From Gammaproteobacteria bacterium (ex Lamellibrachia satsuma) (lineage in GTDB: Bacteria > Pseudomonadota > Gammaproteobacteria > Chromatiales > Chromatiaceae), in NCBI GenBank assembly GCA_019623805.1, contig CP053680.1, positions 4,224,423 through 4,288,422 of the forward strand: 64,000 nt of DNA, in the 5' to 3' direction. The first letter of the stretch is position 1, and every line of letters starts with the position of its first letter. The notes under the pieces are model-generated. The model searched no databases, was not told where the DNA came from, and was given only the letters and a program-made list of their open reading frames with translations. A program made the position numbers and the translations under genes. This document shows, piece after piece, positions 11,201 through 34,439 of the stretch.

Positions 11201-11216
11201 AATAACAGGTCACCGC

Positions 11217-13179: not shown

Positions 13180-13219
13180 CAAGTTATACGGAGAATACTG
13201 ATTCATTCCGTATAACTTG
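13180..13219. repeat. Perfect 13-bp inverted repeat with 14-bp spacer
   Basis: CAAGTTATACGGA (13180-13192) ... TCCGTATAACTTG (13207-13219). Confidence 0.8.
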
Positions 13220-14454: not shown

Positions 14455-14519
14455 CCGGTAGAGCATCAGATAGCGCGCCATGCCGCTAGCGCTGTTTCCT
14501 CGATGTGCGCTTGAATGGC

Positions 14520-15473: not shown

Positions 15474-15558
15474 GAAAAGTATAGCAGTAAATATCAATCA
15501 CACAGAGGCATGGAAAGGTAGAAATCAGAGTAATATCGAAAAGAACATCAGGTACCGT

Positions 15559-16599
15559 TCATACATCAGGAACCTGCCTGACAACCTGCCACTCCCCTCC
15601 CGCCATTCGGCACATTCCATAACGAAACGGCGGCGGTATCAGCGGCAGCATATAACGGGAATCGGCAAACCAGGCACAAAACCGCTCTTCTTCCTGACTG
15701 ACACCGTAGAGGAGAGGGATCTGTGCAAACCGGCGATAGCGGGAAAATTCTTCCTGCGCCCATGCCTGACGTACCAGTGCTTGTATATTGGGCTCATCCC
15801 CATAACGGGTCTCCTGTTGCCACACTAACTGCGTTAAAGGACGGTAGGCTGCAACGAGTCTGGACAGTACCCCTGCACGTTCATTTACATCCACCATGAG
15901 ATCGAAAGAGAAAAGATCTGCATATGCGATGTGGTACCTATCGCTTTCATTCACAATAAGTTTCCAGTGGGCAGGTGAGAACGGCTGCGGAAGAACCGTT
16001 ATTTTGGCCTCTCTGAAACCCTCCTGTGTGCTGTATGTTTTGGCAATCTGGTATGCCTGATGCTGCAGCAGGCCCTGCAGCCCAAGATAAAGGATCATGA
16101 CGGCTACTCCTAATCGTGCAAACCTTTCCGATCTACAGTAGACCTTAGATGCCAGCCCCATAACCACAATACCGGTAAACAGGGGATCAATCACAAACGT
16201 CGTCGCGAGCACTGCCCGGTAATCGGACAGGGGCCAAAAAATCTGTGTCCCCCAGGGAGTGATAATGTCAGTAAGGATATGAGAAGTCAGAGCAATAGCG
16301 GCGATCGCAGTGTAGAGCCCCCGATGCTGTAATTGGCCGCCAAAAGCAGCAAACAACCAGCCCAACAGGAGCGCCCACACTGGCAGCATTAAAAATGAGT
16401 GGGTTGGCCCCCGGTGCCAATCTGTTATAAACGAAAGTGGATCGAACAATATTCCAACGTAATCAATGTCTGGAAAGGCTGCTGCCAGACAGGTAACTGT
16501 CAAGAGACGCGCCCGGCTGGGCAGGGATAGCGCCAGCGGCTTAAGTAGCCCCGTTTGGATTGCGAGTACACCGACAAGGGTGTGGGTGATGGTGTCCAT
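15559..16599 (-). CDS. Membrane-bound metal-dependent hydrolase (YdjM/LexA-binding type)
   Basis: MDTITH, PDID, HRGPTHS, SHILTDIITPWG motifs. Confidence 0.85.
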   Translation of the reverse strand: MDTITHTLVGVLAIQTGLLKPLALSLPSRARLLTVTCLAAAFPDIDYVGILFDPLSFITDWHRGPTHSFLMLPVWALLLGWLFAAFGGQLQHRGLYTAIAAIALTSHILTDIITPWGTQIFWPLSDYRAVLATTFVIDPLFTGIVVMGLASKVYCRSERFARLGVAVMILYLGLQGLLQHQAYQIAKTYSTQEGFREAKITVLPQPFSPAHWKLIVNESDRYHIAYADLFSFDLMVDVNERAGVLSRLVAAYRPLTQLVWQQETRYGDEPNIQALVRQAWAQEEFSRYRRFAQIPLLYGVSQEEERFCAWFADSRYMLPLIPPPFRYGMCRMAGGEWQVVRQVPDV

Positions 16600-16636
16600 C
16601 TATCAGTTGAAAGTATACTGGCAGCCACACCACCTT

Positions 16637-17302
16637 CTAGCCCACACTCTTGGAGAGTTCGGGAGTCGGCGGATGCTCTTTGGGAGTGAACCATTTGAGT
16701 CTGTTGATCAGGCTTTCTGCACGAAGCAGCTGTCGTTCAAGAAAGACTTGGGTTCTTTTCGACTCAAAAGAATCATCACCTAACCAGTAGATGAAAGTAG
16801 CAACATAAAGAGAGGTTAATCCTACCTCCTCAGAGATCCTGCAGAAGTGGGTTGTGTTACTCATGATAGCCTCACGCATCCATTGAACCGTTCGGCTGAT
16901 TCGCAACAAGCCCAAAACCTGCAAATGGATATGTGCAGGCTCCAATTTATAGAGCAGCATGTCGCCGGTTACTTTTCTATACGGCGCCAAGCTGCTCAAC
17001 CAAGCCATGTAGACCTGCTTTATACGTTCACGGATCGGGTATTGTTGCAATTGCCCGCTGGATGCGAAAAGAAGCATGGCTTGATCAGCTCGATCAAACC
17101 AGGCATCCACCAGATCATCTTTCTGTGGGTAGTATTGCCGAATATCGTCTAGAGAGATCTCCAGTGCTTCGGCAATCTCATACAGCCGTAGCGTCTCCCA
17201 CGACTTGTAGCCTGCAAGCTCCAGGGCTTTATCAAGAATTAACTGGGAAATGTCTGCATGGTTATTCATGCATCGGGTTACCTGAGTCGGAAAAACAACC
17301 AC
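16637..17302 (-). CDS. TetR/AcrR-family regulator (COQ9-like C-terminus)
   Basis: ILDKALELA...LYEIAEALEISLDDIRQYYPQKDDL HTH. Confidence 0.75.
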   Translation of the reverse strand: MVVFPTQVTRCMNNHADISQLILDKALELAGYKSWETLRLYEIAEALEISLDDIRQYYPQKDDLVDAWFDRADQAMLLFASSGQLQQYPIRERIKQVYMAWLSSLAPYRKVTGDMLLYKLEPAHIHLQVLGLLRISRTVQWMREAIMSNTTHFCRISEEVGLTSLYVATFIYWLGDDSFESKRTQVFLERQLLRAESLINRLKWFTPKEHPPTPELSKSVG

Positions 17303-17512
17303 TAAATCTCTTTTAAGCTCATAATATCAAACACTTCATCTCCTCCCATCGTCTATGCGGATGAAATGTATCTATTGATAACGAAAGTATAGTTCAAGAA
17401 AAAAACCTCCAAGGTCCCTAAAACCCTATGTTGAACAGCTAATTACCTACAAATGACGGGGTATCTGCCATGTCCATGGCGGATTAAACAAAGATTCTCT
17501 AAGCTAACCATT

Positions 17513-18394
17513 ATGTTAACGATACTTTTTATCGGTTCATTAAGTATCCAGTCACTGGTTACTCTGAAGGCGCTACTCAACTCCGGCCACAGTGTAGGAG
17601 TAATCGCCATAGCAGATTCCGCTGTGGGATTGAAAAAAGCATCTCTATCTACCCGGCCCTATATTCCGGTTTTATTGAAACATGCGAATGACTCCATCCT
17701 GAGTGTGGCCACAATACACGGCATCCCTGTGATACTCCTGGATCGCCAAGATACCGGAGAACGTTTACAACCCTATGCTTTGGATGTAGGAATCGTCTCC
17801 TGCTTTCCACACCAGTTGCAAAACAGCCTACTACAAATTCCAAGATTGGGTTGCTATAACCTGCACCCTTCCCTGCTGCCGCAATACCGTGGCCCATCAC
17901 CCCTTTTCTGGCAATTCAGAAATGGCGAATCGAAAATAGGGATAACTTTGCACAGAATGGTTCAGCTAATTGATGCCGGCCCTATTGTTGCCTGGGAGCA
18001 GGTGCCGGTGATTGACGGCATCTCCGAAACAGATCTGAAACGATTGTGCGCAACCGTTGGCAACGCATTGATTCAAACGCTGTTACAACAGTTGGAGTCG
18101 GGGAGCTTATGCCTGACCACCCAGGATGAGCAACAGGCAAGCTGTCACAGCTGGCCTGGGGAAGAGGATTTCCATATCACAACGGAGTGGTCGGCAAGGC
18201 GGGTCCACAATTTCATCTGTGGTACCCGGCATTGGGGGAATCCATATATCCTGCAACTCGGCAGACATCGTTTCTCAATTGTCTCAACGGAAGGGTTCTC
18301 CCGGCACACCCTGCCGGATAAAGACTACAAAGTGGACGGCATTTGGCTAAAGTTCAACTGCTATGATGGTTGTGTAACGGCACGAATTTGCTGA
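17513..18394 (+). CDS. 10-formyl-THF-dependent formyltransferase (Fmt-like)
   Basis: NLHPSLLPQYRGPSP, GITLHRM, DAGPI. Start set at ATG 17513. Confidence 0.85.
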   Translation: MLTILFIGSLSIQSLVTLKALLNSGHSVGVIAIADSAVGLKKASLSTRPYIPVLLKHANDSILSVATIHGIPVILLDRQDTGERLQPYALDVGIVSCFPHQLQNSLLQIPRLGCYNLHPSLLPQYRGPSPLFWQFRNGESKIGITLHRMVQLIDAGPIVAWEQVPVIDGISETDLKRLCATVGNALIQTLLQQLESGSLCLTTQDEQQASCHSWPGEEDFHITTEWSARRVHNFICGTRHWGNPYILQLGRHRFSIVSTEGFSRHTLPDKDYKVDGIWLKFNCYDGCVTARIC

Positions 18395-18451
18395 TTGATC
18401 AACTCAGAAATCCAATGATTCACCACCATCAGCAGTAATGGACAGTGAATA

Positions 18452-19507
18452 ATGCACAGCAATGCACCTGAACTCTACCGACTGATAGAGACAGTTCTAC
18501 AGGAGAGACTGGACAATGGCACAACCCGCTGCCACCTCTGCCCCTGGCGTTGCAAGATCAGCCATGGCCAGCGCGGCTTTTGTCAAGCCCATGTCAATCG
18601 AAACGGCACCCTCTACAATCTCTCCTACGGCATCCTCTCCGCCATCCATGTCAATCCGATAGAAGAGAAACCGGTACGACATTACCGGCCGGGCACCCAG
18701 GTCCTGTCAGTCGGCAGCTACGGCTGCAGTTTTCGTTGTGGCGGCTGCCATAACCTGGATATCTCCTGGGGCGTGACCGCGCTGGAAGACCTGGCCCGGG
18801 GCGAATCAACAGCCGCCTATGTTCGGCCCGAAGAGCTGGTCGGTATCGCCCTTCGACAGGGGGTTCAGGGCATCGCCTTCACCTATTCCGAACCGGCAGT
18901 CTGGCTGGAATATGTAATCGACGTATGTGAGCAAGCCCATCAGGCTGGTCTCTACACCGTCTACGTCTCGAACAGTTTCGTCACAGAAGAGGCGCTGGAG
19001 CTGGTTGCACCCCATCTCGACGTGCTCTGTTCCGACGTCAAGAGCCTGCACGATGACTTTTACCATGCCATCTGCCCTACCGCCAAGGTCAGCGAGATCC
19101 TCGCCACGATCGAGAGGGCGCAGGAACTGGGTATCCACGTCGAGACCCGCTCCAACCTGATCCCTGGCAGAAACGATGACCCTGATGAGTTGTATCGAAT
19201 CGCCTGCTGGGTGCGGGAACACCTGGGCGAGACCAGCCCCTGGCATATCACCAAATTCTTTCCTGCCTACAAGCTCAGCCATCTGCCGGAAACCCCGAAT
19301 AAAACCCTGTGGTCAGCCTATGAACAGGCCCAGCGTGCCGGGCTGAAAAATGTCTATGTCTACCCTGACAAGGGCTGCGACTGCGCAACAGAGAATCGTC
19401 CTCTAGACGACTATCTGGAGGGAGATGTGGGCGATCTCCAGACTGTGAAAAAATGCAGCGCAAACTGCTGCGGTAGTGAAGGTGTATTGTTGAGAAAATA
19501 TGAGTGA
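18452..19507 (+). CDS. Radical SAM enzyme, AmmeMemoRadiSam (AmrS)-like, with Cys-rich tail
   Basis: CHLCPWRC...C N-terminal cluster, PIEEKP, CSFRCGGC (CxxxCxxC), TYSEP, FFPAYKL; tail GCDC...CSANCCG. Confidence 0.85.
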   Translation: MHSNAPELYRLIETVLQERLDNGTTRCHLCPWRCKISHGQRGFCQAHVNRNGTLYNLSYGILSAIHVNPIEEKPVRHYRPGTQVLSVGSYGCSFRCGGCHNLDISWGVTALEDLARGESTAAYVRPEELVGIALRQGVQGIAFTYSEPAVWLEYVIDVCEQAHQAGLYTVYVSNSFVTEEALELVAPHLDVLCSDVKSLHDDFYHAICPTAKVSEILATIERAQELGIHVETRSNLIPGRNDDPDELYRIACWVREHLGETSPWHITKFFPAYKLSHLPETPNKTLWSAYEQAQRAGLKNVYVYPDKGCDCATENRPLDDYLEGDVGDLQTVKKCSANCCGSEGVLLRKYE

Positions 19508-19602
19508 AGCCACACACAATTCATAATTGAGAGAGCATTTTGAAACTGTCACTGTTATTTAATTTTTCAAGGATTCAGAATTTCTTTACGAGAACTGACA
19601 AT

Positions 19603-19890
19603 ATGCCAAAAATGGTCGACTGTGTTGTCCTGAAGCGACCTTCAGAGAGCCTCGACAAGCCACCGCACCCGGGAGAACTGGGGCAGCGTGTTTATCAGCA
19701 CGTCTCCAAAGAAGGTTGGAAGAAATGGCTGGAGCGTCTCACCACGATCATTAATGAAAACGGCTTGAGCACTGCCGATCCAAAGGATATACGCTTGATC
19801 GAAAGGCACATGGTGGGTTTTCTGTTTGGAGAAGGTGATATGGGTCAACTGCCCGCGGGATTTCGGGCCGGTGGTGGTGGTAAAAAATAG
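19603..19890 (+). CDS. yggX: Fe(II)-trafficking/oxidative-damage protection protein (YggX family)
   Basis: MVDCVVL...PGELGQRVYQHVSKEGW...IINENGL...FLF. Confidence 0.8.
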   Translation: MPKMVDCVVLKRPSESLDKPPHPGELGQRVYQHVSKEGWKKWLERLTTIINENGLSTADPKDIRLIERHMVGFLFGEGDMGQLPAGFRAGGGGKK

Positions 19891-19904
19891 TAAACAGTGG
19901 AACC

Positions 19905-21188
19905 TCAGCTGATACGCCAAACAGGATCGATCTTGAAACTGAGTATCTCATGTGCCTGAAGCAGTGCAGCTTCAGCCTGTTCAGGTGTATCGGCCTTGGA
20001 AAAGATAAATCCCAGATAGCTGGAACCTTCAGGCAGCGCCACCAGCTCATGCCCGACTGGAGCGATAATTCTGACCTCCTCCACATATCGAACCGCCTGA
20101 GCCACATCCACCCCGTTAAACTCTCTTAACATACCGGACCCTGGAATTGGGATCATCAATACGCCCGCCGCCCCTTTAATATGGACATCAGGCAATGGAA
20201 GACCCACTGCATTGGCAATCACCAAGCTCTCCAGAGCCTGGCCGGAAGCTATAGTGAAGAGATGCCCACATTCGCCACCAATCGTGCGGACCGCCACTTC
20301 CAGAATCCAAGCCTCATCTTCGCTGACTCGCAGCTCTGCATGTACAGGCCCCTCAACCAGTTCATAGGCTTCACAAGCTGAGGTAACACGTTCAAGAATA
20401 CGATGCTGCACATCAGAGCTAAGGCGTGAGGGGGTGGTGTAATAGGTCTCTTCAAAAAATGGTCCCACCATAGGATCAGGTTTATCGAACAGCGCCAGCA
20501 CACTGAGTTTGCCCTGGCAAAGAAAGCCCTCCAGAGCCACTTCGAAGCCGTCGATGTAGGCCTCGACCAGCAGATGGGAACGTTCGAAAAGATCTGCTTG
20601 GTTTGCGATGAGCGGGCGGATGCGTTCACAGGCGGTAAGAAACTCCGGCAGGTTGTTCGCGCGAATAACACCCCGACTGGCTGATAGATTGAGGGGTTTG
20701 ATCACACAGGGGAAGGGGAAACCTTCGATCTGGGTTACCAGATCATCAGCCAAAGAGATCAGTTGGTGCTGGGGAACCGGAATACCCGCTTGCCTCAGAC
20801 AATTCCTGGCCAGGTCTTTGCGTCGTGCAAGCCGGGATGAGTGGACAGAATTAAAGCTTAAACCCAATTTGCTTGCAGTCAGCGCTGCCAACTCCACGGC
20901 TGCGTCATCGGTCGCAATAACTCCATTATAAGAGACAGACCTTGCTGCACTGCAGATTACATCAAGTGCCTCTCCAGGATCATTCAAGTCGATATGTAAC
21001 CCTTCTGCCAACTCACGTACCAAGGAATGTTTACCAGGTGAGGCTATATCAATAGCCACTCCCATTTCCCTGGCAGCGTTAAGGTAGGCACTAATACGAT
21101 AACTCTGAGAAGGTGCAATCAGCAAAATCCGCGGTCGCGGGGCACGACTAATAACAATCAGGCACAACCTCCTCCAGCAGCACCGCAA
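19905..21188 (-). CDS. ATP-grasp ligase
   Basis: FPCVIKPLNLSASRGVIRA, LVEAYIDGFEVALEG, FEETYY, GPVHAELR, ILEVAVR. The true start is probably ~21167. Confidence 0.85.
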   Translation of the reverse strand: MRCCWRRLCLIVISRAPRPRILLIAPSQSYRISAYLNAAREMGVAIDIASPGKHSLVRELAEGLHIDLNDPGEALDVICSAARSVSYNGVIATDDAAVELAALTASKLGLSFNSVHSSRLARRKDLARNCLRQAGIPVPQHQLISLADDLVTQIEGFPFPCVIKPLNLSASRGVIRANNLPEFLTACERIRPLIANQADLFERSHLLVEAYIDGFEVALEGFLCQGKLSVLALFDKPDPMVGPFFEETYYTTPSRLSSDVQHRILERVTSACEAYELVEGPVHAELRVSEDEAWILEVAVRTIGGECGHLFTIASGQALESLVIANAVGLPLPDVHIKGAAGVLMIPIPGSGMLREFNGVDVAQAVRYVEEVRIIAPVGHELVALPEGSSYLGFIFSKADTPEQAEAALLQAHEILSFKIDPVWRIS

Positions 21189-21535
21189 GCGCCGCAGACA
21201 CCGGAACCACCTGTCTGCGAAAAGACATTGTTAAATACAAAACTCTTATTTAAACCCTCATGTTTGTAGTCAATTTCCACACCTTCCAGATAATTAAGTG
21301 CAACCGCATCCACATAAACATTCATTCCATTGCATTCCAAAACACAATCAAACTCTGTTGGCGTTTCAACAAACGTCATGCCATAAGTCATACCATCACA
21401 ATCTCCACCTGCGACAAAGATACGGATGCCACTGATATCCGATTCAGCATTTATCAGTTGAAGCAGCTTCATCTCTGCAATCTGTGAAATTCTTACCGCG
21501 TCAGTTATTGTGTGATTAAACTGTTCGTTCTGCAT
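21158..21535 (-). CDS. HesB/IscA-like Fe-S carrier with atypical Cys tail
   Basis: IRIFVAGGDCDGMTYGM, VYVDAVALNYLEGVEIDY, FVFNN; C-terminus VCGACGAAGGGCA. Confidence 0.8.
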   Translation of the reverse strand: MQNEQFNHTITDAVRISQIAEMKLLQLINAESDISGIRIFVAGGDCDGMTYGMTFVETPTEFDCVLECNGMNVYVDAVALNYLEGVEIDYKHEGLNKSFVFNNVFSQTGGSGVCGACGAAGGGCA

Positions 21536-21652
21536 TGCATGTTCCCAGCATTTTACATATTCCTGTGGAAACTGTGAGGTTAAAGTCGCCAAACTCACTC
21601 ATATGTTGTTAGTAATAAAGCAATTTTCGAAAAGGTGTGGCTGAAATCACAA

Positions 21653-21877
21653 TTATGCCGCTTGGCGCCCACTCTGACTATCAATAGGGCGACGGCGATC
21701 CCTACCCGTCCTGCGGTTAGTTCCCGGTGACCTTACAACTGCTGGGGATTGTGTTACGGAAAAGGCATGCCAATAGTGATATAGCATCAAGCTGAGCATG
21801 ACGAGACCGCCGACAATCAGGAAAAGCACAAATAACGCAGGGAATAGCATCAGGATGCCTGCAAATATCTGTTCCAT
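21653..21877 (-). CDS. Small single-pass membrane protein
   Basis: AGGAGG RBS, long hydrophobic N-terminus, basic tail. Confidence 0.55.
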   Translation of the reverse strand: MEQIFAGILMLFPALFVLFLIVGGLVMLSLMLYHYWHAFSVTQSPAVVRSPGTNRRTGRDRRRPIDSQSGRQAA

Positions 21878-22040
21878 AATTCATCCCTCCTGACCCTTCG
21901 TTAGTAAAAGCAATTCTTGCCTCTCTCTGGAATTTTGACACTAACTGCCTTTGTTAGTGCCCAGCGCACCGAACATTAGGCATAATGCGGATGTCCAAAC
22001 ATTGATAAGGCGCATGCATCACTCGATGAGGAGATTAGCA

Positions 22041-22928
22041 ATGGCCATGCAGGCAAAACGCCGTGCATCAAATGTAGTCGGTGACTTCTATGTAGACACC
22101 AGCTGTATCGACTGCGGCACATGCCGCTGGGTAGCTCCCGAAAGCTTTGATGTCAGCGGCAGTAAATCCCGTGTCTATTACCAGCCGGAAAATGATGCAC
22201 AGAATCACCGAGCCTGCATGGCACTTCTGGCTTGCCCTGTCGGTGCCATTGGCAGTCATAAAACACACAATTTTAAAGCGGCGCAAACAGCATTCCCCGA
22301 TCTAATCGAGGCCAACGTGTTTCATTGCGGCTACCATTCAAGAAAGAGCTATGGTGCTACCAGTTACTTGATTCAGCGTAAGGAGGGAAATCTACTGGTT
22401 GATTCACCACGCTTTATCCCTTCACTCATATCGCAACTCGAAGCATTAGGTGGTATCCGCTATTTTTTTCTCAGCCATATTGATGACGTGGCCGATCATT
22501 CGATGTTTGCCCGGCATTTCGGCTGTGATCGCATTCTTCACCAGGACGATGTCAATATCGAAACAGATGAAGTTGAGATCCAACCTCAGGGAGAGACACC
22601 GTTAGCCCTCGATAATGACCTGCTGCTGATTCCCACTCCCGGCCACACCAAGGGGTCGTGCTGCCTGCTATACCAAGAGAGATATCTTTTCACCGGCGAT
22701 CACTTGTGGTGGAATCCTGGTAGCCACTGCCTGAGCGCTTCACCGTATTATTGCTGGTACAGCTGGGAACACCAGATCGCATCCATGGAGTTACTGGCAA
22801 AATACCGATTTTCCTGGGTGTTGCCAGGCCACGGACAACGCATTCAGTTATCGGAGAAGAAGATGAAGGATGCACTACAGCAATGTATTGACTGGATGAA
22901 GAGAAGAAAAATGCAGCGTGTTGTATAA
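22041..22928 (+). CDS. Ferredoxin-MBL-fold metallo-hydrolase fusion
   Basis: CIDCGTC...CP ferredoxin-like N-domain; SHIDDVADH, GHTKGS, TGDH, PGHG. Start set at ATG 22041 after GAGGAG. Confidence 0.85.
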   Translation: MAMQAKRRASNVVGDFYVDTSCIDCGTCRWVAPESFDVSGSKSRVYYQPENDAQNHRACMALLACPVGAIGSHKTHNFKAAQTAFPDLIEANVFHCGYHSRKSYGATSYLIQRKEGNLLVDSPRFIPSLISQLEALGGIRYFFLSHIDDVADHSMFARHFGCDRILHQDDVNIETDEVEIQPQGETPLALDNDLLLIPTPGHTKGSCCLLYQERYLFTGDHLWWNPGSHCLSASPYYCWYSWEHQIASMELLAKYRFSWVLPGHGQRIQLSEKKMKDALQQCIDWMKRRKMQRVV

Positions 22929-22937
22929 CCTGATGTC

Positions 22938-25640
22938 TCAGCTCGAGAACAGTCCGCGCAATACGTAAGGGAGAATGCCGCCGTTGCAATAGTAGTCGAC
23001 CTCGATTGGCGTATCGATCCGCATCAACAAGCTACATTGGCTGGTGTGACCGTCGGCGTGCCGGATGTGGAGTGTGACGTTCTTTCCTGGTGCAATGCCA
23101 TCTTCGGTGCCGACAACGTCGAATATTTCGTCGCCACGCAGTCCGAGTGAAGCGGCACTATCCTGACCCTTGAACTGCAGTGGCAGTACACCCATACCGA
23201 CCAGATTGGATCGGTGAATGCGTTCGAAACCTTTCGCCACCACGGCCTTAACCCCGAGCAAACGTGTCCCCTTGGCCGCCCAGTCTCGACTCGACCCGGT
23301 ACCGTATTCCTCTCCCGAAAAGATCAGGGTCGGCGTACCGGCAAGCTGATAATCCATCGCCGCATCGTAGATGAAGCGCTCTACACCATCGGGCTGAGTC
23401 AAGGTGAGTCCACCTTCAACCGGCCGTCCATCCATCCCCGGCGGCAGCATTAAGTTGCGGATTCGTACATTGGCAAAGGTGCCGCGCATCATCACTTCGT
23501 GGTTGCCCCGGCGCGAACCGTAGCTGTTAAAGTCATCGGGCGTCACACCCAACCCGCGCAGGTAGATGCCCGCCGGCGAATCACCCTTAATCGAACCTGC
23601 CGGACTGATATGATCGGTTGTCACAGAATCTCCAAAGATGGCTAACGCGCGCGCGCCACGAATGCTCACAAGGGGGGGTGGTTCCAGCGCGAAATCGTCG
23701 AAGAATGGAGGGCGTGCAATGTAGGTGGAAGGGTCCCAAACGTAAATCTCACCGGTCACTGCAGCGATATCCTCCCAAAGCGGATTGTCCCGCGCGAAGT
23801 CCTTGTACAGACGGCGATAGGTTTCTGGATCGGTCGCCTGTCTCAGCGCAATCCCGACTTCCTCCTGGCTGGGCCAGATCTCATGCAGATAGACGGGTAC
23901 CCCATTGTTGTCGAAGGCGAGAGGATCATTGGAGAGATCTATACCTATTCTGCCTGCCAGCGCAAACGCTACGACCAGCGGCGGGCTCATCAGGAAGTTC
24001 GCCTTGATGCCGGCGTGAATGCGAGCCTCGAAGTTGCGGTTACCGGACAATACCGAGGCGCAGATCAGATCCTGCTCCGATACCAAACGCTCGATCTCCG
24101 GATCAAGCGGGCCTGCGTTTCCAATGCAGGTGGTACAACCGTAGGCCACTACGCGGAAACCCAGTTGTTCTAGTGGTGCAAGCAACCCGGCTTGGCCGAG
24201 GTACTCGCTCACCACGCGCGATCCAGGTGCGAGCGAAGTCTTTACTTGCGACGGCACACGCAAGCCACGAGCCACTGCCTTCTGCGCGAGCAGGCCAGCC
24301 GCCAGCATTACACCAGGATTTGAGGTGTTGGTGCAGGATGTGATCGCTGCAATCAGAATGTCTCCATGGCCAACGTCGCCGCCGCTGGATAGCGCATAAC
24401 GTGCCGCGTGGGATTGATTCGCCTTTCCGTATCCTCCGTCGGCCGTCGGTTTGCTTAGTAATTCCGCAAAGTGTCGCTTCAGTTCCGGCATGACGATCCG
24501 GTCCTGCGGCCGCTTCGGACCGGCCACGCAGGGTACTACGCTGGCGAGATCCAACTCCAGCACGTTACTGTAGTTGATCTCGCCCGCACGGGGCATGCCA
24601 AAGAGCTGCTGCGCCTGAAAGTAGCTGCAAAAGGCATCCACCTCCTCATCGCTACGACCGGTAGCTGAGAGATAGTTAACAGTCTCTTCATCGGGTGGAA
24701 AAAAACCGATTGTTGCACCGTACTCAGGCGTCATGTTGGCGATCGTCGCCCGGTCTGGCAGCGTGAGCGAGGCCGCACCCTCGCCGAAGAATTCAACGAA
24801 TTTACCCACCACCTTAGCCTTGCGCAGTGCCTCGGTAACGACCAGCACCAGGTCGGTTGCTGTCACGCCCTCGCCCAAACGGCCCGAGAGGTGAACACCA
24901 ACCACATCGGGCGTGAGGATGTAAACTGGCTGGCCTAGCATGCCGGCCTCGGCCTCGATTCCGCCCACGCCCCAACCCACGACGCCCAGCGCGTTGATCA
25001 TTGTGGTGTGCGAATCGGTGCCGACGAGCATGTCTGGAAAATACACACCGTCGCGATGATTGACACCCTTTGTGAGATATTCCAGATTGACCTGGTGCAC
25101 AATACCGACACCGGGAGGTACGACGCGAAAAGTGTCGAATGCCTGCATGCCCCACTTGATAAAACGGTAGCGTTCGGCATTGCGGCGAAACTCTAACCGC
25201 ATGTTCAGGTCCAGTGCATTGGACTCGCGAAAGTGGTCGACCTGCACTGAGTGATCCACCACCAGATCTACCGGCACCAGCGGTTCGATAATGCGCGGGT
25301 TCTTGCCGAAGCGCACCGCCACGTCGCGCATCGCGGCAAGATCGCAGAGCAGAGGCACGCCGGTGAAGTCTTGTAACACGATGCGCGCCACTACAAAGGG
25401 AATCTCCTCCGTACGTGCCGCTTGCGGCTGCCAATTAGCCAGCTGATGCACATGATCCTCGGTGATCCGCTTCCCATCGAAATTACGCAGCAATGATTCG
25501 AGCACGATACGTAATGATACTGGCAGGCGCGACACCTTACCGACGCCGGTAGCCTCCAGAGCGGGCAACGAGTAAAAATGGCCGCTCCGCCCGGAGGCGA
25601 AGCCAAACTCACGAAGCGTCTCTTGTTGACCGAGTGGCAT
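22938..25640 (-). CDS. acnA: Aconitate hydratase A
   Basis: [54 protein letters not shown]. Start set at ATG 25640. Confidence 0.95.
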
Positions 25641-25781
25641 AACTGCCCCTTCTGTGCTGACGACGAGAGTGTTCAGTCGCTTTGTTCGATTGCGTTCGAA
25701 TCCGCATCGCCGAAGAAAGACTACACTGAAACTAGACCTCGGGACGGCGCCGAAGTTCAGCCACACGGCGAGAGAGTTGCC

Positions 25782-27167
25782 ATGACTGCTGCCATCAGGA
25801 TAGAACACGATTCGTTCGGCGATGTTGAAGTATCGGCCGAAGCGCTTTGGGGGGCGCAGACCCAGCGCTCACTCGTTCAATTCCGCATCTCGACCGAACG
25901 CATGCCGGTAGCACTGCTAATGGCGCTGGCGCGGATCAAGCGCATCTGCTCATTGGTCAATGGCGAGCTTGGCCAACTTGACGAGAAGGTGGCTGCTGCA
26001 ATTGCGCAGGCAGCCGATGAGGTGTTGGTCGGCGCCCATTCAGATGCGTTTCCGCTCGTAGTATGGCAGACCGGCTCCGGGACCCAGACCAACATGAACA
26101 TGAACGAGGTGCTGGCTAACCGGGCTTCTGAACTCCTGGGTAGCGGACGTGGTGTTGCACGCTGCGTGCATCCGAACGACCACGTCAATCTCGGCCAGTC
26201 CTCCAATGACATCTTCCCGACTGCCATGCATGTTGCAGCCGTGTACAGCCTTACCCAGAACCTACGACCCGCGCTGCGCACACTACAGACAACACTCGCC
26301 GGGAAATCTACCGCATTCGCCGACATCGTCAAGATTGGCCGTACCCATCTGCAGGATGCCACGCCGTTGACGTTGGGGCAGGAAATATCGGGCTGGGTGG
26401 CACAGCTTGAACATGCCGATCAGGCGATCGTTGCAAGCCTCAGCGCATTATATGAACTGGCTGTTGGCGGTACTGCGGTAGGCACCGGCCTCAATACGCA
26501 TCCGCAGTTCGGCGAGCGTGTCGCCGACAGGCTTGGACAGGAAACAGGGTTCCCCTTCCGCTGCGCTGCTAACCGCTTTGCCGCACAGGCGGCGCATGAT
26601 CCGCTGGTGAATGCACACGGGACACTCAAGACGCTTGCGGTGGCGTTGATGAAGATCGCTAACGACATCCGCTGGCTCGCCTCCGGACCACGCTGCGGAT
26701 TCGGCGAGCTACGCCTGCCGGAAAATGAGCCGGGCAGTTCAATCATGCCGGGCAAGGTAAACCCGACGCAATGCGAGGCGCTCACCATGGTGTGCTGCCA
26801 GGTGCTGGGTAACGATGTCGCGCTATCAGTAGGCGGCGCATCGGGGAATTTCGAGCTCAACGTTTTCAAGCCGCTGATCGCCTACAATTTCTTGCAGAGT
26901 GTGCGCCTGCTGGCGGACGCAATGACAAGTTTCGAAACGTACTGCGGGCGAGGCATCGAGCCCAATCACACGCGTATTGCCCAGCTGCTTGCACACTCAT
27001 TAATGCTGGTGACAGCACTGAGCCCGCATATCGGTTACGAACATGCAGCGGCAATTGCCAATCACGCCTATGCGAACGATATCTCTTTGCGCGAGGCGGC
27101 GCTGGCGCTCGGTTACGTTACCGAAGCGCAGTTCGACGAATGGGTACAGCCTGAAAGAATGGTTTAG
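25782..27167 (+). CDS. fumC: Class II fumarate hydratase
   Basis: [40 protein letters not shown]. Start set at ATG 25782. Confidence 0.95.
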
Positions 27168-27923
27168 TGCCTGTGCTGTTTTTATACGGAGACTTGTTTG
27201 CACACATCTGCGTATGGCGTTGCTTGGGCGGCCTGGCTGGTTAACGTAAAAAATTGCACTCTTCAATGATTGCAAGAACGAGTCGCAGAGCAAGCTGTCC
27301 AAAAGCTTGAATACCTAACTTATCTGGACTCTGTAGATGGGATGGTGTCAATGGAGAGTGTCTTTCGTAAACGAGGCTTTCTCCCCGTATCTGATCCCTT
27401 GACAGCCTTTCCACCAGGCAGTCAATGGGCGATGCTGGATGAGCTCGGCAAGAACCTTCCCAGCCTGTTGCAGAGCCCTGATTTCCGTGACTCCGCACGT
27501 CGCTTCAATATCCCCTTTTGGGATGAGCAAAAGACGAGTGTCCTGGACCAGCCGGCACTGCGACTCTATTATCTCCGGCTGGGTTTCCTCGCCTCCGCCT
27601 ATATCAATCAGATCGGTCAGCCCCCTGCAACCATACTGGCTGGTAATATAGCCCGGCCCCTCTGTCATGCCTGTGCATTACTGGGGCGTCCCCCAATTCT
27701 CAGCTACGACGGATATGCCCTCTATAACTGGAAAAGGTTGGATATACAGGCGCCAATCGAACTGGGCAATATCGACACTATTCAAAACTTCGTCCCTCTT
27801 TATGACGAACACTGGTTCATTGCATATTCTGGCGAACGTGAACGCTGATTCTGGTGATCGTGAACACCCAACCTAACCACACATAGGGCTCGGTGTATTT
27901 TTACTTCAAGTGTTCACGATCAG

Positions 27924-28658
27924 TCAAGTTATGGCTTGCCGCTTCCGTAAAGATTCGCCTTTCAGCGTGATCCGGTGGGCGTTATGCATGAGCCGATCCA
28001 GAATGGCATCAGCCAACGTATTATCACCGATGGACTGATACCATTGATTCGTTGGCAACTGGCTGAGGATGGCCGTTGATGTGCTGCCATTTCGGTCATC
28101 CATTATTTCCATGAGATCATTTCGCTGTGCAGCGTTGAGCGGCTCCAGTCCCCAGTCATCAAGGATGAGCAAGTCGAGCCTGGCCAGTGTTTGCAGTGCT
28201 TTGCTGTAACTGCCATCGGCTTTTGTTTGTGCGAGTTCCAGCAGCAACCGGGATAGTCGATAGTATTTGACCCGGTAACCTTTCATGCAGGCAGCATAAG
28301 CCAGCGCACAGGCAATGTAAGTCTTTCCGCTGCCACAAGGACCGGTCAGCAGCAGATTTTGGTTTTTATTGATCCAGTCACATTGCAGTAGACTGGCCAC
28401 CAGGGATTTCTTCAGCCCTCTGGGATGCTGGTAATCAACGTCTTGAGGGTTGGCTGCTATTTTGAGCTTGGCCGCTTTTAATAAACGCTGTTGCTTGCGA
28501 TGCTCCCGGTCATTGAGTTCATTATCTGCCAGTATTTGCAGGCGCTCCTCGAAGGACAGGCCCTCGTAAGTGCCAGGCTGCTCCTGCTGAGTTACCAGTG
28601 CGTTGGCCATGCCACTGAGCTTGAGTTGTCGTAACTGTGTAATGGTTTGATCTAACAT
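27924..28658 (-). CDS. istB: IS21 helper ATPase
   Basis: GPCGSGKT Walker A, LILDDWG, ADAILDRL. Confidence 0.96.
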   Translation of the reverse strand: MLDQTITQLRQLKLSGMANALVTQQEQPGTYEGLSFEERLQILADNELNDREHRKQQRLLKAAKLKIAANPQDVDYQHPRGLKKSLVASLLQCDWINKNQNLLLTGPCGSGKTYIACALAYAACMKGYRVKYYRLSRLLLELAQTKADGSYSKALQTLARLDLLILDDWGLEPLNAAQRNDLMEIMDDRNGSTSTAILSQLPTNQWYQSIGDNTLADAILDRLMHNAHRITLKGESLRKRQAIT

Positions 28659-28675
28659 TATGGTTTCCTTTGGGT

Positions 28676-30220
28676 TTAGTGGAAGCTCTTCGGGCCACGG
28701 ATGTTTTCATGTGACTGGGGTAATAAAGAGAGCTGCTCTTTTGATGCCGGCAGCAGTTGATCCTGATTGCTTTGCAGGATGGATTTGATCTGCTTTAAGC
28801 GATAAAGCTGGTGATGATTGGCAATCGCACATGCTTTATTCAGCCGGTCAGGTTCGTATTTTCTGGATAGATTCAGCAGACCCAGGCAGACACGGTATGC
28901 CTGCTGCTCATGTTGCTTTTGAGCCAGTATGCTTTTTACCCAGATGAGAACCTCATCACCCAGATCCTTGGCCCAGTTCATCAACCGTCCAGCAGACCAT
29001 TGATGATGTTTCTCATGTTTTTTGGGCATGTGGTCAGGAACGGTGGTCATGCCATGGCAGTATTTTCGTACATGGCTGGTCACCCGCTTGTTGTGGAAGA
29101 AGATCTCTACCAGTTTGTCTTTGGTATGGATTTCCAACTGCTCACCAACCAGCTGATGGGGCACAGAGTACAGATGCTTTTCATACTGCACATGGTAATC
29201 CACGTTGACCTTCACCTTTTTAATATAGGTATATTCATAGGTGTGCTTCGGCAATGGAGACAGAGCAGTCTTGTCGATTGACTGGAACCATTCCTGACGT
29301 GAACCTTCCAGTTGTTTAAAAGGTTTTTTGTTAACGTCAGCCAACAAGGCAACGATACATTGGTTCAACTCGGCCAGGGAGAAGAAGGTATGGTGGCGTA
29401 AGCGAGCCAGTATCCAGCGTTCGATGATTTGCACACCCACTTCTGCCTTGGCTTTATCCTGTGGCTTTCTGGGGCGAGCCGGCATAATGGCGGTACCGTA
29501 ATGTGCACCCAGTTGTTCGTAACTGGGGTTGAGGTCCGGATCGTGACGGCAGGCTTTGGTAACGCCGCTTTTTAAGTTATCCGGAACCACTAATTTTGGA
29601 ACACCACCGATAAAAGCGAATGCTCTTGCATGACTGGCCAGCCAGTCTGGCAAGCCCTGTGTCCAGGTAGCTTCTGCAAAGGTGTAATTGGAGGCGCCTA
29701 GTACCGCGACAAAGATCTGGGCAAAGCGCACTTCACCGGTATCACCTTGAACAATTGGTACGGTCTGGCCTGCATAATCCACGAACAGTTTGTCACCGGC
29801 CTTATGGGTCTGGCGCATGGAGCGTTTTTGTTTTTTTAGCCACTCACTGTATAAGTGGCAATACTGCGGATAGCTGTAACTGCGGTTGGGGTATTGCTGG
29901 GCATATTCTTCCCAGAGCAGGTGCTTGGTGACATGTTTAAAATGCAGTTCCTTATAAACATCTTTCCAGTCTGGCAACTGTAACGATCCAGAGGTTCGTG
30001 TGTCTGATTCAGGATAAATGGCATTGGCTAACTGGCGATCATCCAGTTTTTCGATAGCCTCCCAGTCCAATCCCAGTTCATGAGCTTTGCAGGTGATTTT
30101 TTGCACTGCACCCAGGCTGAGGCGCAGACTGTCCCGGATTTGCCGCATGCTGAGCTGGGCAGACAACCGGAGTCTTAATATCTCTCTTAATTTACGCATT
30201 GATAGTCTCTTTGTTGGCAT
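28676..30220 (-). CDS. istA: IS21 transposase
   Basis: FVDYAG, VPDNLKS, KAKAEVGV DDE motifs. Confidence 0.96.
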   Translation of the reverse strand: MPTKRLSMRKLREILRLRLSAQLSMRQIRDSLRLSLGAVQKITCKAHELGLDWEAIEKLDDRQLANAIYPESDTRTSGSLQLPDWKDVYKELHFKHVTKHLLWEEYAQQYPNRSYSYPQYCHLYSEWLKKQKRSMRQTHKAGDKLFVDYAGQTVPIVQGDTGEVRFAQIFVAVLGASNYTFAEATWTQGLPDWLASHARAFAFIGGVPKLVVPDNLKSGVTKACRHDPDLNPSYEQLGAHYGTAIMPARPRKPQDKAKAEVGVQIIERWILARLRHHTFFSLAELNQCIVALLADVNKKPFKQLEGSRQEWFQSIDKTALSPLPKHTYEYTYIKKVKVNVDYHVQYEKHLYSVPHQLVGEQLEIHTKDKLVEIFFHNKRVTSHVRKYCHGMTTVPDHMPKKHEKHHQWSAGRLMNWAKDLGDEVLIWVKSILAQKQHEQQAYRVCLGLLNLSRKYEPDRLNKACAIANHHQLYRLKQIKSILQSNQDQLLPASKEQLSLLPQSHENIRGPKSFH

Positions 30221-31177
30221 CGCCTTCCCCGGTCAAAACGGGCAAGGTTAGCAAGGCTTTATCAATGTGTGGAAAGGGTTTCTGGCATCGTGAACGGTGA
30301 TTCTGGTGAAATGCCAAAAGCGTTCACGATCAATCAGAATGAGTGTTCACGTTCGTCCAGAATAGGTGTTCACGATGGATCAGAATCAGTGTTCATGATG
30401 GGCCAGAATATGCAGGTTCATCCTGGCACATGTGGAGATAGAGGCCATCGCGGCAAGAATTCTCGATGCCATTGCGGAGATTCAGCAGGCATTGCCTACA
30501 TCTGAATTCTCATTGATTGACGAATCACTGGAAAAGATAGCCGCTGCCATCGATGAGCAGATAACAGTGCTGCGCCGAATCCCGGAAAAGATGGACCCGG
30601 GGCTCTATTTCAAAGCCTTCCGGCCCTATATCCGTTATTTCGAAAATGTACTGTACGAGGGCGTGGATCGGCAACCCATGCAGTATCGCGGCGAAACCGG
30701 GGCTCAGAGCAGTATCATGCCGGTACTGGTGGGTCTGATGAAAATCCCCCATCGCAGTTCACTGTTGACGGAACACCTGGTCGCCATACGCCAATACATG
30801 CCAGCCTCTCATCAAGCTTTGATTCGATCTGTGGAGGCCATGCCATCGCTGAAACAAGTCGCTGATAAATCGGCCTTTAATCAGGTATTAGAGGCGATGG
30901 CCAACTTCCGGGATGTCCATTACGGCTGGGCACAGGAATATATCGCGCGCCGAACTCCTGACCCCATAGGTACGGGAGGCACCCCCTATATGATCTGGCT
31001 GAAACAGTTGATCGATGAAACGCGTCAATGGCAGCGATGAGGCGGACTGTGCTCCCTCCTGGCTGCAACTGTCCGTTGATCTCAATCAGCCTCAGATAAC
31101 GCGAATCAGTTGCAGCAACTAATTCCGAGATAGGAACTATACTTTTCAGTACCATAAGAACAGTAGGTCAAAGCGTC

Positions 31178-32377
31178 ATGTCGGGACGTCAGACTGTCTT
31201 GATCATCGTAATAGCCCTCGTCGTGATAACGACTGACCTCCTTAGAACGCACTCTACTCAGGCAGATGATAGTGCTAACCCACTCCTCAAACCAGAAGTC
31301 ACCAACTCGCTGAAAAGCAGATTGCCTCAACAACAAGAAACAGTAAAACAGAGCGAAATGAATCGCATCAGCCGCGCGGAGGTAGAACACGAGTACGGTA
31401 CAGACCCTAACCGGATCTGGTATCCGGAAAGCGCCATCAATACCTACGATGTCCCTAACATTGTCATCAAAGAGTCGGATGAGCCTGATGCACCGTTACA
31501 TACCTATCAATTGAATGATCGTACATGGTTTCTGTTCGGAAACATTGCCGAGACGGATGAATACAACCGTGGCTGGAACGGTAATGCCGGTTTTGTAGTT
31601 ACCAATGACGCGGTCGTTGTCATCGATTCCCTCGGCACCCCAAAACTAGGTAAGCGCTTAATCGCCACCATACAATCGATCACCGACAAACCAATTCGAT
31701 ATCTAATCGTAACCCACAACCACCCCGATCATGCCTATGGAGCGGTGGCCTTTAAACAACTGGGTGGCGTGACAATCCTGGCCCATGAAGGCGCAGAACA
31801 GTATCTCAACTCTGGTTGTTGGGAATCCTCTGTGGAATTTCGTCGAGCTTTCATTGCACCGGACATGGAAGGATTCGAGATCATATTGCCGGACATTGCG
31901 ATTGCTGGAGAGATATTCTCCAGACGGTCGATATACAACGGTGGAGTAACGTTTAACATCTACAACGTCGGAACCCACCACTCGTTTGGTGATTTGGTGA
32001 TACATCAGGTCGAAGATAATATCGTCTGGGTGTCAGACCTGGCGTTCAACGGGCGCACAACCTTCATCGGCGACGGCAACAGCGTACAGGCCCTGGAATC
32101 AATCGACTGGTTGAGCAAAACATTCCAGGATGCATGGCTCATGGTACCGGGTCATGGCAGCGCGCAAACCACCCCTTTTCCAATGATCGAGAAGACACGT
32201 TCCTATATAGAAGGGTTGCGCAACATCATGGCACAAGCCGTAGAGGACGGAATGGACTTACAGGACGCCGTTGAGCAAGCTGAATCTGAAGAGTGGAAAA
32301 AGACACGATTGTACGAACTTAATCATCGGTCTAATGCCAACTTCATTTATCGAGAGATGGAACAGGAAATGTTCTGA
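31178..32377 (+). CDS. Exported MBL-fold metallo-hydrolase (SoxH-like)
   Basis: N-terminal hydrophobic segment; NAGFVV, VIDSLG, THNHPDH, HHS, SDL, VPGHG. Confidence 0.8.
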   Translation: MSGRQTVLIIVIALVVITTDLLRTHSTQADDSANPLLKPEVTNSLKSRLPQQQETVKQSEMNRISRAEVEHEYGTDPNRIWYPESAINTYDVPNIVIKESDEPDAPLHTYQLNDRTWFLFGNIAETDEYNRGWNGNAGFVVTNDAVVVIDSLGTPKLGKRLIATIQSITDKPIRYLIVTHNHPDHAYGAVAFKQLGGVTILAHEGAEQYLNSGCWESSVEFRRAFIAPDMEGFEIILPDIAIAGEIFSRRSIYNGGVTFNIYNVGTHHSFGDLVIHQVEDNIVWVSDLAFNGRTTFIGDGNSVQALESIDWLSKTFQDAWLMVPGHGSAQTTPFPMIEKTRSYIEGLRNIMAQAVEDGMDLQDAVEQAESEEWKKTRLYELNHRSNANFIYREMEQEMF

Positions 32378-32568
32378 CTATAAAGGTAACCATGGATAGT
32401 ATGCGTAATAAGGAGTATACCAGCGTTTTTCACTTTTTCGTTACGTGAAATGCAAACAACTTGATCCATTGGAGGAACAATCATGAGCAAAACAGTAGAT
32501 GAAGTCTTGTCTACAAACGAAGCTTATGCAGCCGATTTTGGTGATAAAGGTAATCTGCCTATGCCACC

Positions 32569-33715
32569 TAGTGGGCCATGCGGTTAATTAGGTAAGGATT
32601 TCTTTGCCCTATTTACTGAGGCAATAATCTTCTCAGCAGTCTTTGTCCATCGGAATGGTTTGGCACTGTACTTGTTGTGAACCTTTACGTAGCGCTTTAT
32701 CTCATCCTCAAGGTCTTTCACGCTGGTAAACACACCACGATAGAGTGCCCGTCGTTCAAGTTGTGAAAACCAGCCTTCCACTGCGTTAAGCCAGGAAGCA
32801 CTTGTCGGTGTGAAATGGAAATGCACCCTTGGGTGCTTCTCCAGCCAGAGTTTAACTTCTGTGGTCTTATGAGCGCTGAGATTATCTAAGATGATATGCA
32901 AGTCCAAGTCCTCCGGTGTGCTCTTGTCTATCTGCTTTAGGAATTCGATAAACTCCTTGGCACGATGCCTATCGGTTACCTTAGCAATCACCTCGCCGCT
33001 AAGTATGTTGAATGCTGCGTATAAACTGGCCGTACCATTTCGTTTATAGTCATGCGTACGGCTGGCTATCCTGTTCTCGCTAAGAGGTAAGCCCGGCTGA
33101 GTTCTGTCTAATGCCTGAATTTGGGTTTTCTCATCGACCAACAGCACCATGGCGTTATTTGGTGGATCCATATACAGGCCAACAACGTCAATAACCTTCT
33201 CCGCAAACTGAGGGTCGCTGCTAATCTTGAAGGTTCTCAGGCGATGTGGCTTAAGGTCTGCTGCATCCCAAATCTGACGAACTTGCCATGTACTGATTTG
33301 AGCATATTCCGCCATCAATGCAATGCTCCAGTGCGTGGCTTCATGCGGGACTTGTTCGCAGGTCATTTTCAGAACTGTTTGTACCGTTTTTTCATCGATT
33401 ACCGTTGGCCGTCCTGAGCGGACTGCATCCTGTAATCCATCTATTCCTTCATCGTTGAACCGGTTACGCCACTTGTAGACTGTTTTCTCCGATACACCCA
33501 AGGATCTAACGATATCAACGGGTCGGTTACCAGCATCTAACTTCAGAACTATTTGTGCTCTCAGTACCAGACCGTGAGTGACACTTGTACTTCTCAACCA
33601 GCTGGATAGCTCTTCTCGATCAGCAGATGAGAGTTGAACATGGGGGGCTTTCTTTGACATGCCCCATTATAACAAGCTCACCAAATACTTACCTTATTTT
33701 CCGCATGATCCACTA
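32569..33715 (-). mobile_element. IS630-family element #1
   Basis: Ends TAGTGGGCCATGCGG / CCGCATGATCCACTA; TA duplication in CTAG. Confidence 0.93.
32584..33660 (-). CDS. IS630 transposase
   Basis: [40 protein letters not shown]. Confidence 0.95.
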
Positions 33716-33921
33716 GGCGGCAATTTCCATCCTCATCTGCATGGATGCCCGTCTCGACCCTGCAAAATATAGCGGTCTCGCAGAAGGGGATGCCCATGTG
33801 ATCCGCAATGCTGGCGGACGTGCAAGTGATGATGCCATCCGCTCCCTGGTAATTTCATACAAATTACTGGGCACAAGAGAATGCTTTGTCATCCACCACA
33901 CCGACCGTGGAATGGAGACAA

Positions 33922-34027
33922 TAAACTACCCCGCAGCAAGCTGACGGGGTATTGAGATGAATTGCCCGAAATCACAGATTTCATCGCAATGCTTTTTAAT
34001 CGCTGCAAGCAGCGGGGAATAAAACCC
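33922..34027. mobile_element. ~105-bp hairpin-ended miniature element (IS200/IS605-derived-like)
   Basis: TAAACTACCCCGCAGCAAGCTGACGGGGTATT at one end and CGCTGCAAGCAGCGGGGAAT at the other; no ORF. Confidence 0.55.
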
Positions 34028-34242: not shown

Positions 34243-34439
34243 TGTCTGACTGGAATATCCTCCAAGAACTATAGCGAATGTCTGCTTCCGATCAACCGAG
34301 GCAAACTGGACAAGCCGAGGTGAATGAAGCCCAAGCGGGTAAACTAATCAAACAAAGCGACGACTTTCTTTCCCAGGCTACTTCTCTCCTGGAGCAGACT
34401 AAACGAAACTGACACTCAGTACTTACCGGGGAAACACCC

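Follow-up and report, generated by a model that had tools for sequence, protein, structure and literature searches.

An intact five-gene module with a tailed IscA-like carrier in the decaying, probably foreign cargo of a broken defence element

L-amino acid ligases (LALs) such as BL00235 and BacD/YwfE combine the ATP-grasp_4 and LAL_C2 domains, and they occur in antibiotic clusters or as stand-alone genes. The A-type carriers IscA, SufA and ErpA have the Fe-S_biosyn fold, a first cysteine in a GGxCxG context and a canonical C-terminal CGCG(E/D)SF. We analysed a 64,000-nucleotide stretch (the window) of the complete 4.32-Mb chromosome (53.9% GC) of Gammaproteobacteria bacterium (ex Lamellibrachia satsuma) (contig CP053680.1, positions 4,224,423 to 4,288,422), in which relatives of both groups are neighbours within 18 kb of cargo (15559-33921; all coordinates are window positions). 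The ligase shares the domain architecture of the known LALs, but it is closely spaced 3' of the carrier gene and adjoins a YggX paralogue. The carrier shares the fold and the first cysteine context of the A-type carriers, but the canonical C-terminus is replaced by GGSGxCGxCG and a glycine run ending in Cys. The 18-kb cargo is probably a mosaic of foreign chromosomal DNA that is decaying in a broken defence element, not a single system, and it carries an intact five-gene module to which this carrier and ligase belong. An earlier note on this DNA had named the gene classes of the cargo, all of which were confirmed at their coordinates by Pfam and NCBIfam.

In the module, the genes for a formyltransferase, a radical S-adenosylmethionine (SAM) protein and YggX follow one another on the forward strand and are convergent with those for the tailed IscA-like carrier and the LAL-type ligase on the reverse strand. 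The first gene (17513-18394, +; start possible at 17453) encodes an Fmt/ArnA-like formyltransferase (Pfam Formyl_trans_N) with the motifs HPSLLPxxRG and DAGPI; its nearest structures are ArnA and Fmt (E 1e-25 to 1e-15, C-terminal domain included). The second (18452-19507, +) encodes a radical SAM protein that passes the model of AmrS (AmmeMemoRadiSam, TIGR04337) marginally, with 229.7 bits vs a cut-off of 220. It shares with AmrS the CxxxCxxC motif and the N-terminal Cys motif, but the match ends at model position 283 of 349 and the C-terminus is replaced by a GCDC...CxxxCC tail. This tail (DKGCDCA..EN...VKKCxxxCCGxEGVLLKKYE) is conserved in 25 orthologues. The protein is only about 36% identical to the two canonical AmrS copies of the genome, of which the one at 52231-53265 scores 398 bits. 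AMMECR1/Memo partners were found neither in the 10-34 kb region nor beside the radical SAM orthologues in 25 loci, and the single Memo-AMMECR1 gene (50493-52043) is accompanied by a radical SAM gene of its own.

The third gene (19603-19890, +) encodes the YggX paralogue (PF04362/NF003817, 94.2 bits vs a cut-off of 74). The carrier gene (21158-21535, -) lies 5 nt upstream of the ligase gene (19905-21152, -). The carrier exceeds the general model TIGR00049 (71 bits vs 58.8), and it scores 60-68 bits with the IscA, SufA and ErpA equivalog models, all under their cut-offs of 117-181. Its tail, GGSGxCGxCG(A/S/G)nGGGC(A/G), is conserved in 56 homologues. The family profile of the ligase (Pfam ATP-grasp_4 and LAL_C2) matches BL00235 (PDB 3vot) over nearly its full length with an E value of 1.9e-60, and relatives occur in at least 592 species representatives. 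By its domains and full-length similarity the ligase is of the L-amino-acid-ligase type, and dipeptide formation is predicted from sequence. In the database, a 415-aa protein identical to the ligase begins at ATT (21150-21152), 5 nt past the carrier stop; the next in-frame common start upstream, GTG at 21153-21155, is also within the 5-nt spacer.

Neither small protein of the module is the only one of its kind in the host. The native YggX is 49% identical to the module copy, and three ordinary A-type carriers are also encoded. In 11 of 12 module-bearing genomes the module YggX is the second, lower-scoring paralogue and the higher-scoring copy is found elsewhere, indicating that the module YggX is not the housekeeping copy. 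A simple motif scan of 56 carrier upstream regions matched the IscR type 1 and type 2 regular expressions in 0-3 of them, and no 8-mer occurred in more than 8. A full-text literature search for the pairing of YggX with ATP-grasp, or of L-amino acid ligase with IscA, returned no paper describing the module; AmmeMemoRadiSam and formyltransferase co-occurred in one paper (PMC9062700).

The conservation of the module was examined in a locus survey, in which 27 ligase homologues were aligned and 80 species-representative loci with 10-kb flanks were collected through the ligase, 53 of them gammaproteobacterial and 27 from other phyla. The cargo proteins were searched by tblastn and the neighbour open reading frames (ORFs) were clustered. 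The tailed carrier accompanies the ligase in 94% of the gammaproteobacterial loci and 41% of the others, and YggX in 85% and 15%, respectively. The AmrS-like radical SAM protein is a partner in 38% of the gammaproteobacterial loci and 0% of those from other phyla, and the formyltransferase in 15% and 11%. Wherever the position of the carrier gene was scored in gammaproteobacterial loci, it lay upstream of the ligase on the same strand (50/50). The clustering of all 80 loci revealed no other gene family near the ligase in more than 12 of them.

The earlier note had proposed to define a conserved core by searching with the radical SAM, ATP-grasp, YggX and IscA-like proteins; such a core exists, with the formyltransferase in addition, and it recurs in many genomes. 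Protein distances within it are concordant: among 21 sequences (20 loci and the window), the distance matrices of four module proteins correlate with r = 0.68-0.85 (Mantel p <= 0.0005), so the discordant phylogenies that could have spoken against a core were not found. The radical SAM gene occurs in two orders relative to the ligase gene, convergent in 13 loci and co-directional downstream in 7, which favours a functional link over frozen synteny. The same note had considered a pathway with built-in iron-sulfur support; taken as support for the radical SAM enzyme, this reverses the hierarchy. The YggX paralogue, the tailed carrier and the ligase are the constant core; the radical SAM protein and the formyltransferase are optional add-ons.

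One cultured bacterium carries all five genes. The selenate-respiring Sedimenticola selenatireducens DSM 17993 (locus L040, NZ_ATZE01000008.1) has proteins 76% (radical SAM), 70% (YggX), 56% (carrier), 50% (ligase) and 34% (formyltransferase) identical to those of the window.

We then compared the cargo with related genomes. Among 30 relatives, 7 of them congeners, neither the radical SAM protein nor the ligase has an orthologue; the best radical SAM matches there are canonical AmrS paralogues with 36-38% identity. All seven congeners are without the five-gene module, and one of them (G003) retains a more decayed remnant of the cargo. Beside a copy of the tRNA-Leu gene (contig C5), G003 has the last 74 codons of a gene for a ferredoxin-domain metallo-beta-lactamase (MBL) protein, an AcnA gene with an internal deletion (the only AcnA among the congeners), an intact gene for another MBL (90% identity) and a gene for a beta-carbonic anhydrase (beta-CA); the five-gene module, FumC and IDO are all missing. 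The beta-CA gene of G003 is continuous across the site that is occupied by IS630 in the window, and its truncation point is identical to that of the window copy. Therefore, the two copies are of common descent and the beta-CA gene was already incomplete before they diverged.

A closer counterpart was reached via a ligase homologue of 86% identity, on contig L028 from a metagenomic, uncultured source. Its collinearity with the window, with nucleotides about 85% identical, extends over three blocks, which comprise the five-gene module (17467-21631), AcnA-FumC (22934-27213) and beta-CA (32417-32569 and 33713-33926). The gene setting of L028 is chromosome-like: TamA/TamB flank the genes at one end, and DUF2189, a LysR regulator and LysE flank them at the opposite end. 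Since the host genus is otherwise without the cargo genes and the cargo is collinear with L028, a foreign origin is likely. Relative to L028, the window has extra DNA with the ferredoxin-MBL gene between the carrier and AcnA, and with IDO and an MBL gene between FumC and beta-CA. GC content is uneven along the cargo, being 58% in AcnA and FumC and about 50% in the module and the rest. We rejected this as a sign of separate origins for AcnA/FumC and the module, because L028 has the same pattern gene by gene and the unevenness is thus intrinsic to the genes. The left breakpoint of collinearity, at 17467, lies about 46 bp ahead of the likely formyltransferase start, so the donor promoter of the formyltransferase operon was not transferred.

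The cargo resides in an island whose native frame reads sdhCDAB, tRNA-Leu (10032-10118), a 39.6-kb insert, tRNA-Cys (49707-49780), tRNA-Gly, a Memo-AMMECR1/radical SAM operon, pgsA and uvrC. The whole interval between tRNA-Leu and tRNA-Cys (10119-49706) is insert and consists of two tandem defence elements with ParE, SNF2, AbiEi, AbiEii and a TOTE primase-helicase. The element ends are repeated (repeats D5, D6 and D8): 10144-10315 matches 40618-40789, and 40519-40672 matches 49601-49754, which takes in the 3' part of tRNA-Cys. The right element (40.6-49.7 kb) is intact and the left one (element B) is degenerate. The left SNF2 remnant, the Helicase_C part of the gene (10525..10826, +; repeats D4/D11; the ORF 10525-10824 matches Pfam Helicase_C), corresponds in 10556-10826 to 43687-43975 of the intact SNF2 gene (42087-44870). 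The right remnant, the 3' end (34311..34654, +; repeats D7, D9 and D10), corresponds to 44784-45130 and is followed by the backbone of element B. The earlier description of a cargo flanked by two SNF2 remnants was thus correct, but 808 bp of the left-copy SNF2 gene have been replaced by 23.5 kb (10827-34310), not by about 18 kb.

Between the same two tRNA genes, congener G001 has 17.9 kb of different content with an intact SNF2/AbiE/TOTE element and no cargo. The locus therefore has the marks of a tRNA-site island, namely an insert between tRNA genes, repeated ends and content that varies among congeners. In common with tRNA-linked genomic and defence islands that carry metabolic cargo, it has the tRNA site, direct repeats at the element ends, defence genes, insertion sequences (IS) and strain-specific cargo. 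It differs from them in that the cargo splits a backbone gene instead of lying at an element end, and in that no integrase domain was found among the window ORFs scanned with Pfam, a scan that covered part of the small ORFs. A composite transposon was considered and rejected, because the flanking IS differ, with an ISL3 fragment on the left and, on the right, an IS630 that has its own TA duplication in beta-CA.

A further relative bears on how the cargo may have arrived. In L115, a metagenome-assembled genome (MAG), the five-gene module is separated from tRNA-Arg/tRNA-Ser by a TOTE remnant, IS fragments and a PIN/RHH pair (14075-18275 of that locus). The TOTE remnant is 77-80% identical in nucleotides to that of the window and lies 3 kb from the module. 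The arrangement in L115 suggests that an element of the SNF2/AbiE/TOTE type took up the module from an adjoining chromosomal position. A chunk of donor chromosome would have been captured by, or recombined into, the defence element and then patched with other pieces, including the ferredoxin-MBL gene, IDO, the MBL gene and the TetR-YdjM pair. Insertions of IS21 and IS630 have since killed IDO and beta-CA.

Judging from domains and gene neighbourhoods, we tentatively propose that the module makes or modifies an amino-acid-derived compound and is served by dedicated YggX and carrier paralogues, a reading that is possible though somewhat short of probable. The ligase would form an amide bond, the radical SAM protein would use its cysteine tail to hold the partner that it acts on, and an amine would be N-formylated by the formyltransferase. 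The paralogous YggX and the tailed carrier would deliver or repair the iron-sulfur (or soft-metal) centres needed. Several points weigh against this proposal and against the history given above. No neighbour gene of the module names a substrate. Correlated protein distances would also be expected from plain vertical co-inheritance. An orthologue of the radical SAM gene is missing from the whole genome in 8 of the 12 genomes that have the trio of YggX, carrier and ligase with no adjacent radical SAM gene, which means that the trio must have a role needing neither the radical SAM protein nor the formyltransferase. In this host the module may be silent, the donor promoter having been lost at 17467. 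Finally, the proposed capture route draws on a single relative (L115) and on the collinear match to a single contig (L028).

A different role for the carrier was also considered. The tailed IscA-like protein might be the protein substrate or carrier of the ligase, as LysW is for the ATP-grasp enzyme LysX, with later steps, by the radical SAM protein and the Fmt-like formyltransferase, taking place on the tethered group. The protein is small and metal-binding, its conserved tail is flexible, and its gene directly precedes the ATP-grasp gene on the same strand at every scored locus, with a gap of 5 nt here. The C-terminal domain of Fmt binds a macromolecular carrier, and the Fmt/ArnA-type formyltransferase of the module has a C-terminal domain too. 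However, the tail ends in varying residues (CA, CG, CGS, GGY, GGF, AS, AH), a poor fit to a defined ligation site, and the ligase is of the LAL type that uses free amino acids, not of the RimK/LysX type. By analogy with LysW this role can be pictured, but we regard it as very unlikely.

AcnA and FumC raise another explanation. AcnA (22938-25808, -) and FumC, a class II fumarase (25578-27167, +), are divergent, intact and above the cut-offs of their NCBIfam equivalog models, and they are the sole AcnA and the sole FumC of the genome. For the host they are second isoenzymes, an oxidant-stable aconitase and an iron-free fumarase, since it otherwise has only a 639-aa aconitase and an Fe-S class I fumarase, with no AcnB. 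With the YggX paralogue and the extra A-type carrier, they could form a replacement package that sustains the tricarboxylic acid cycle and Fe-S proteins under oxidants or Fe-S poisons. The block beta-CA-FumC-AcnA-carrier-ligase-YggX is contiguous both in L028 and in the window, and all its genes except beta-CA are intact here while IDO is broken. In E. coli the SoxRS regulon includes acnA, fumC and yggX, which are scattered and have one regulator in common. The same three functions stand side by side in the window and L028, but they are linked in this one lineage only: elsewhere, no contig but L028 has AcnA, FumC and beta-CA next to the module, and for AcnA/FumC this is 1 of 90 loci examined. 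Among the congeners, G003 has lost FumC and the module and has a deleted AcnA, and the other six have none of these. No SoxR/SoxS-type regulator was found in the stretch, and the package has no role for the ligase, the radical SAM protein or the formyltransferase. The oxidant-stress reading of AcnA, FumC and YggX in the earlier note therefore stays a live rival, but weaker than the reading as a pathway for an amino-acid-derived compound, and we consider it unlikely.

The other genes of the 18 kb are in a different state from the module. The cargo, described earlier as enzyme genes, holds three IS-derived pieces and two dead genes. The IDO/PrnB-like pseudogene (27270..31040, +; the Pfam IDO profile matches with positions 7-161 and 162-358 on its two halves) was cut in two by an IS21 (27821-30414; - strand for istA/istB) that has perfect inverted repeats, TGCATATTCTGGC and GCCAGAATATGCA, and a 7-bp target duplication, GGTTCAT. 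The clade-D beta-CA pseudogene (32483..33926, +), recognised from its ORF translations, consists of a 5' part (32483-32570) and a middle part (33714-33926) and is missing its 3' end; an IS630 (32571-33713, -) with a TA duplication interrupts it. A zinc-ligand Cys of beta-CA is also lost, with HTDRGM here vs HTDCGM in the donor homologue, which matches PDB 5ztp (E 5.7e-41). IS21 has three near-identical copies in the genome. A second IS630 lies at 36860-37990, inside the TOTE gene of the left element, and 7 near-identical copies of it occur in the genome. Given these copy numbers, both IS families look recently active.

Two MBL-fold proteins are encoded as well. The one with a Fer4_13 ferredoxin domain (21951-22928, +; Pfam), extra relative to L028, has a 66% identical homologue only on the near-identical contigs L029 and L030. 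The SoxH-like exported MBL hydrolase (31178-32377, +; Lactamase_B; TIGR04559 under its cut-off) is intact and recurs near the module in no locus of the survey. A 90% identical copy in G003 (C5:22260-23456) is intact too, and in both species that keep cargo the neighbours of the gene decay. It may be the sole passenger still under selection.

On the left, the cargo begins with genes for a YdjM membrane protein (15559-16599, -; Pfam YdjM) and a TetR-family regulator (16637-17302, -), which matches the TetR-family structure PDB 3ni7 with an E value of 2.9e-51 and, in Pfam, only COQ9 weakly. The earlier note had suggested that this TetR possibly controls the cargo. TetR and YdjM instead form a self-contained pair, which is also present in L115 (45% and 38% identity), and L028 has no TetR beside the formyltransferase. 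In the window the TetR gene and the formyltransferase operon are divergent with a 210-bp region in common, an arrangement that is not conserved, DUF2189 being found there in L028; TetR could act on the formyltransferase operon in this genome. A scan of 15-34.5 kb for sigma-70 promoters and terminators gave fewer promoter-like sites than shuffled sequence.

These data bear on the idea that all of the 18 kb forms a single biosynthetic cluster, under TetR, for a tailored amino-acid product. Its enzyme classes are typical tailoring enzymes, and in single loci further cargo genes do come near the module: IDO lies 7 kb off in L119 only and TetR-YdjM 5 kb off in L115 only. L115 and L119 are close relatives, however, and gene order in common weighs little between such genomes. 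IDO and beta-CA are both dead in this genome, and none of the 80 species-representative loci has IDO, either MBL, TetR or YdjM in the 8-kb neighbourhood of the ligase. Nor does L028, the closest relative, have any of these between the common blocks. A single pathway or detox package across 18 kb, as first proposed, does not survive the finding that only five genes recur together elsewhere, and the island is neither one regulon nor a unit under TetR control; the one-cluster idea is largely refuted, and we hold it to be highly improbable.

The remaining ORFs of the insert are unrelated or narrowly distributed. Upstream of the carrier gene is a 74-aa membrane ORF (21653-21877, -) that has a single hydrophobic helix and a tail rich in Arg; it is kept, at 44-49% identity, only in the close relatives L033, L115, L116 and L119, and no copy was seen in loci further removed. 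The insert begins on its left with 4.7 kb (10827..15558), annotated with Pfam, of unrelated filler: a 356-aa ORF (11217-12287, -), a CoiA-like gene (13456-14298, +), a piece of which congener G001 shares at 98% identity, and a fragment of an ISL3 transposase (14440-15240, -). The 356-aa ORF has no Pfam, NCBIfam, PADLOC or PHROGs match, and PADLOC and PHROGs scans were empty for the left-filler ORFs and for 33889-34242. Two partial chromosomal paralogues of the 356-aa ORF are 50% and 42% identical to it across the C-terminal part.

The island itself is ordinary, a defence element at a tRNA hot spot that takes up a slab of foreign chromosome and then loses it piecemeal to IS. What merits attention is the intact and widespread five-gene module. 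Among gammaproteobacterial sulfur oxidisers and methanotrophs, the ligase nearly always has the tailed A-type carrier and a dedicated YggX paralogue as its partners, and the window shows that the full version of the module can pass from one lineage to another in a single block with AcnA and FumC. The cultured carrier of the full set, S. selenatireducens DSM 17993, makes the function of the module directly testable.

A described parallel to the radical SAM tail is ArsL, the radical SAM enzyme of arsinothricin biosynthesis (arsQML), whose RCCLKC tail binds the As(III) substrate (bioRxiv 10.1101/2024.02.01.577332; PMC8552651). The likeness lies in a vicinal-cysteine C-terminal tail on a radical SAM protein. 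The window protein differs in belonging to another, PflA/AmrS-like family and in being encoded in a cargo without ArsM, ArsQ or an arsenic-resistance gene; it has no match to the ArsL (NF040542) or CUAEP models, and the closest ArsM-like gene that the genome has is distant, at 71.6-72.3 kb of the chromosome. In other phyla the ligase has a different radical SAM neighbour. It adjoins NF040546 in seven loci, an uncharacterised radical SAM family with a CUAEP/CCAEP (Cys-Cys/Cys-Sec) tail whose nearest named relative is ArsL. This family accompanies the ligase in 22% of the loci from other phyla and 2% of the gammaproteobacterial ones, and the hosts of the pairing belong to Chloroflexota, Methylomirabilota and Acidobacteriota. 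Four loci from other phyla have YggX and/or a formyltransferase no more than 4.5 kb from the ligase, and two of these loci (L088 and L089) also count among the seven with NF040546. In L106 (9040-11251), an Anaerolineae MAG, an ArsM-type gene (PRK11873, 339 bits, above the cut-off) overlaps the ligase start and is followed by YggX and the formyltransferase; this gene beside the ligase is the only direct arsenic link found.

Two unrelated families of Cys-Cys-tailed radical SAM proteins thus stand beside the same partners, which is the most suggestive functional clue in these data, and only a clue. By analogy with ArsL, one could imagine the module as a mobile cassette for an undescribed amino-acid-derived compound. 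The tail would bind a substrate or a soft element (S, Se, As or a metal) in the manner of the ArsL tail, the ligase would couple the product to a second amino acid, the Fmt-like enzyme would N-formylate it, and YggX and the carrier would hand over the element or clusters. We rate this more specific picture as improbable. If it were true, the AmrS-like and CUAEP/CCAEP radical SAM proteins would be interchangeable cores of one widespread pathway.

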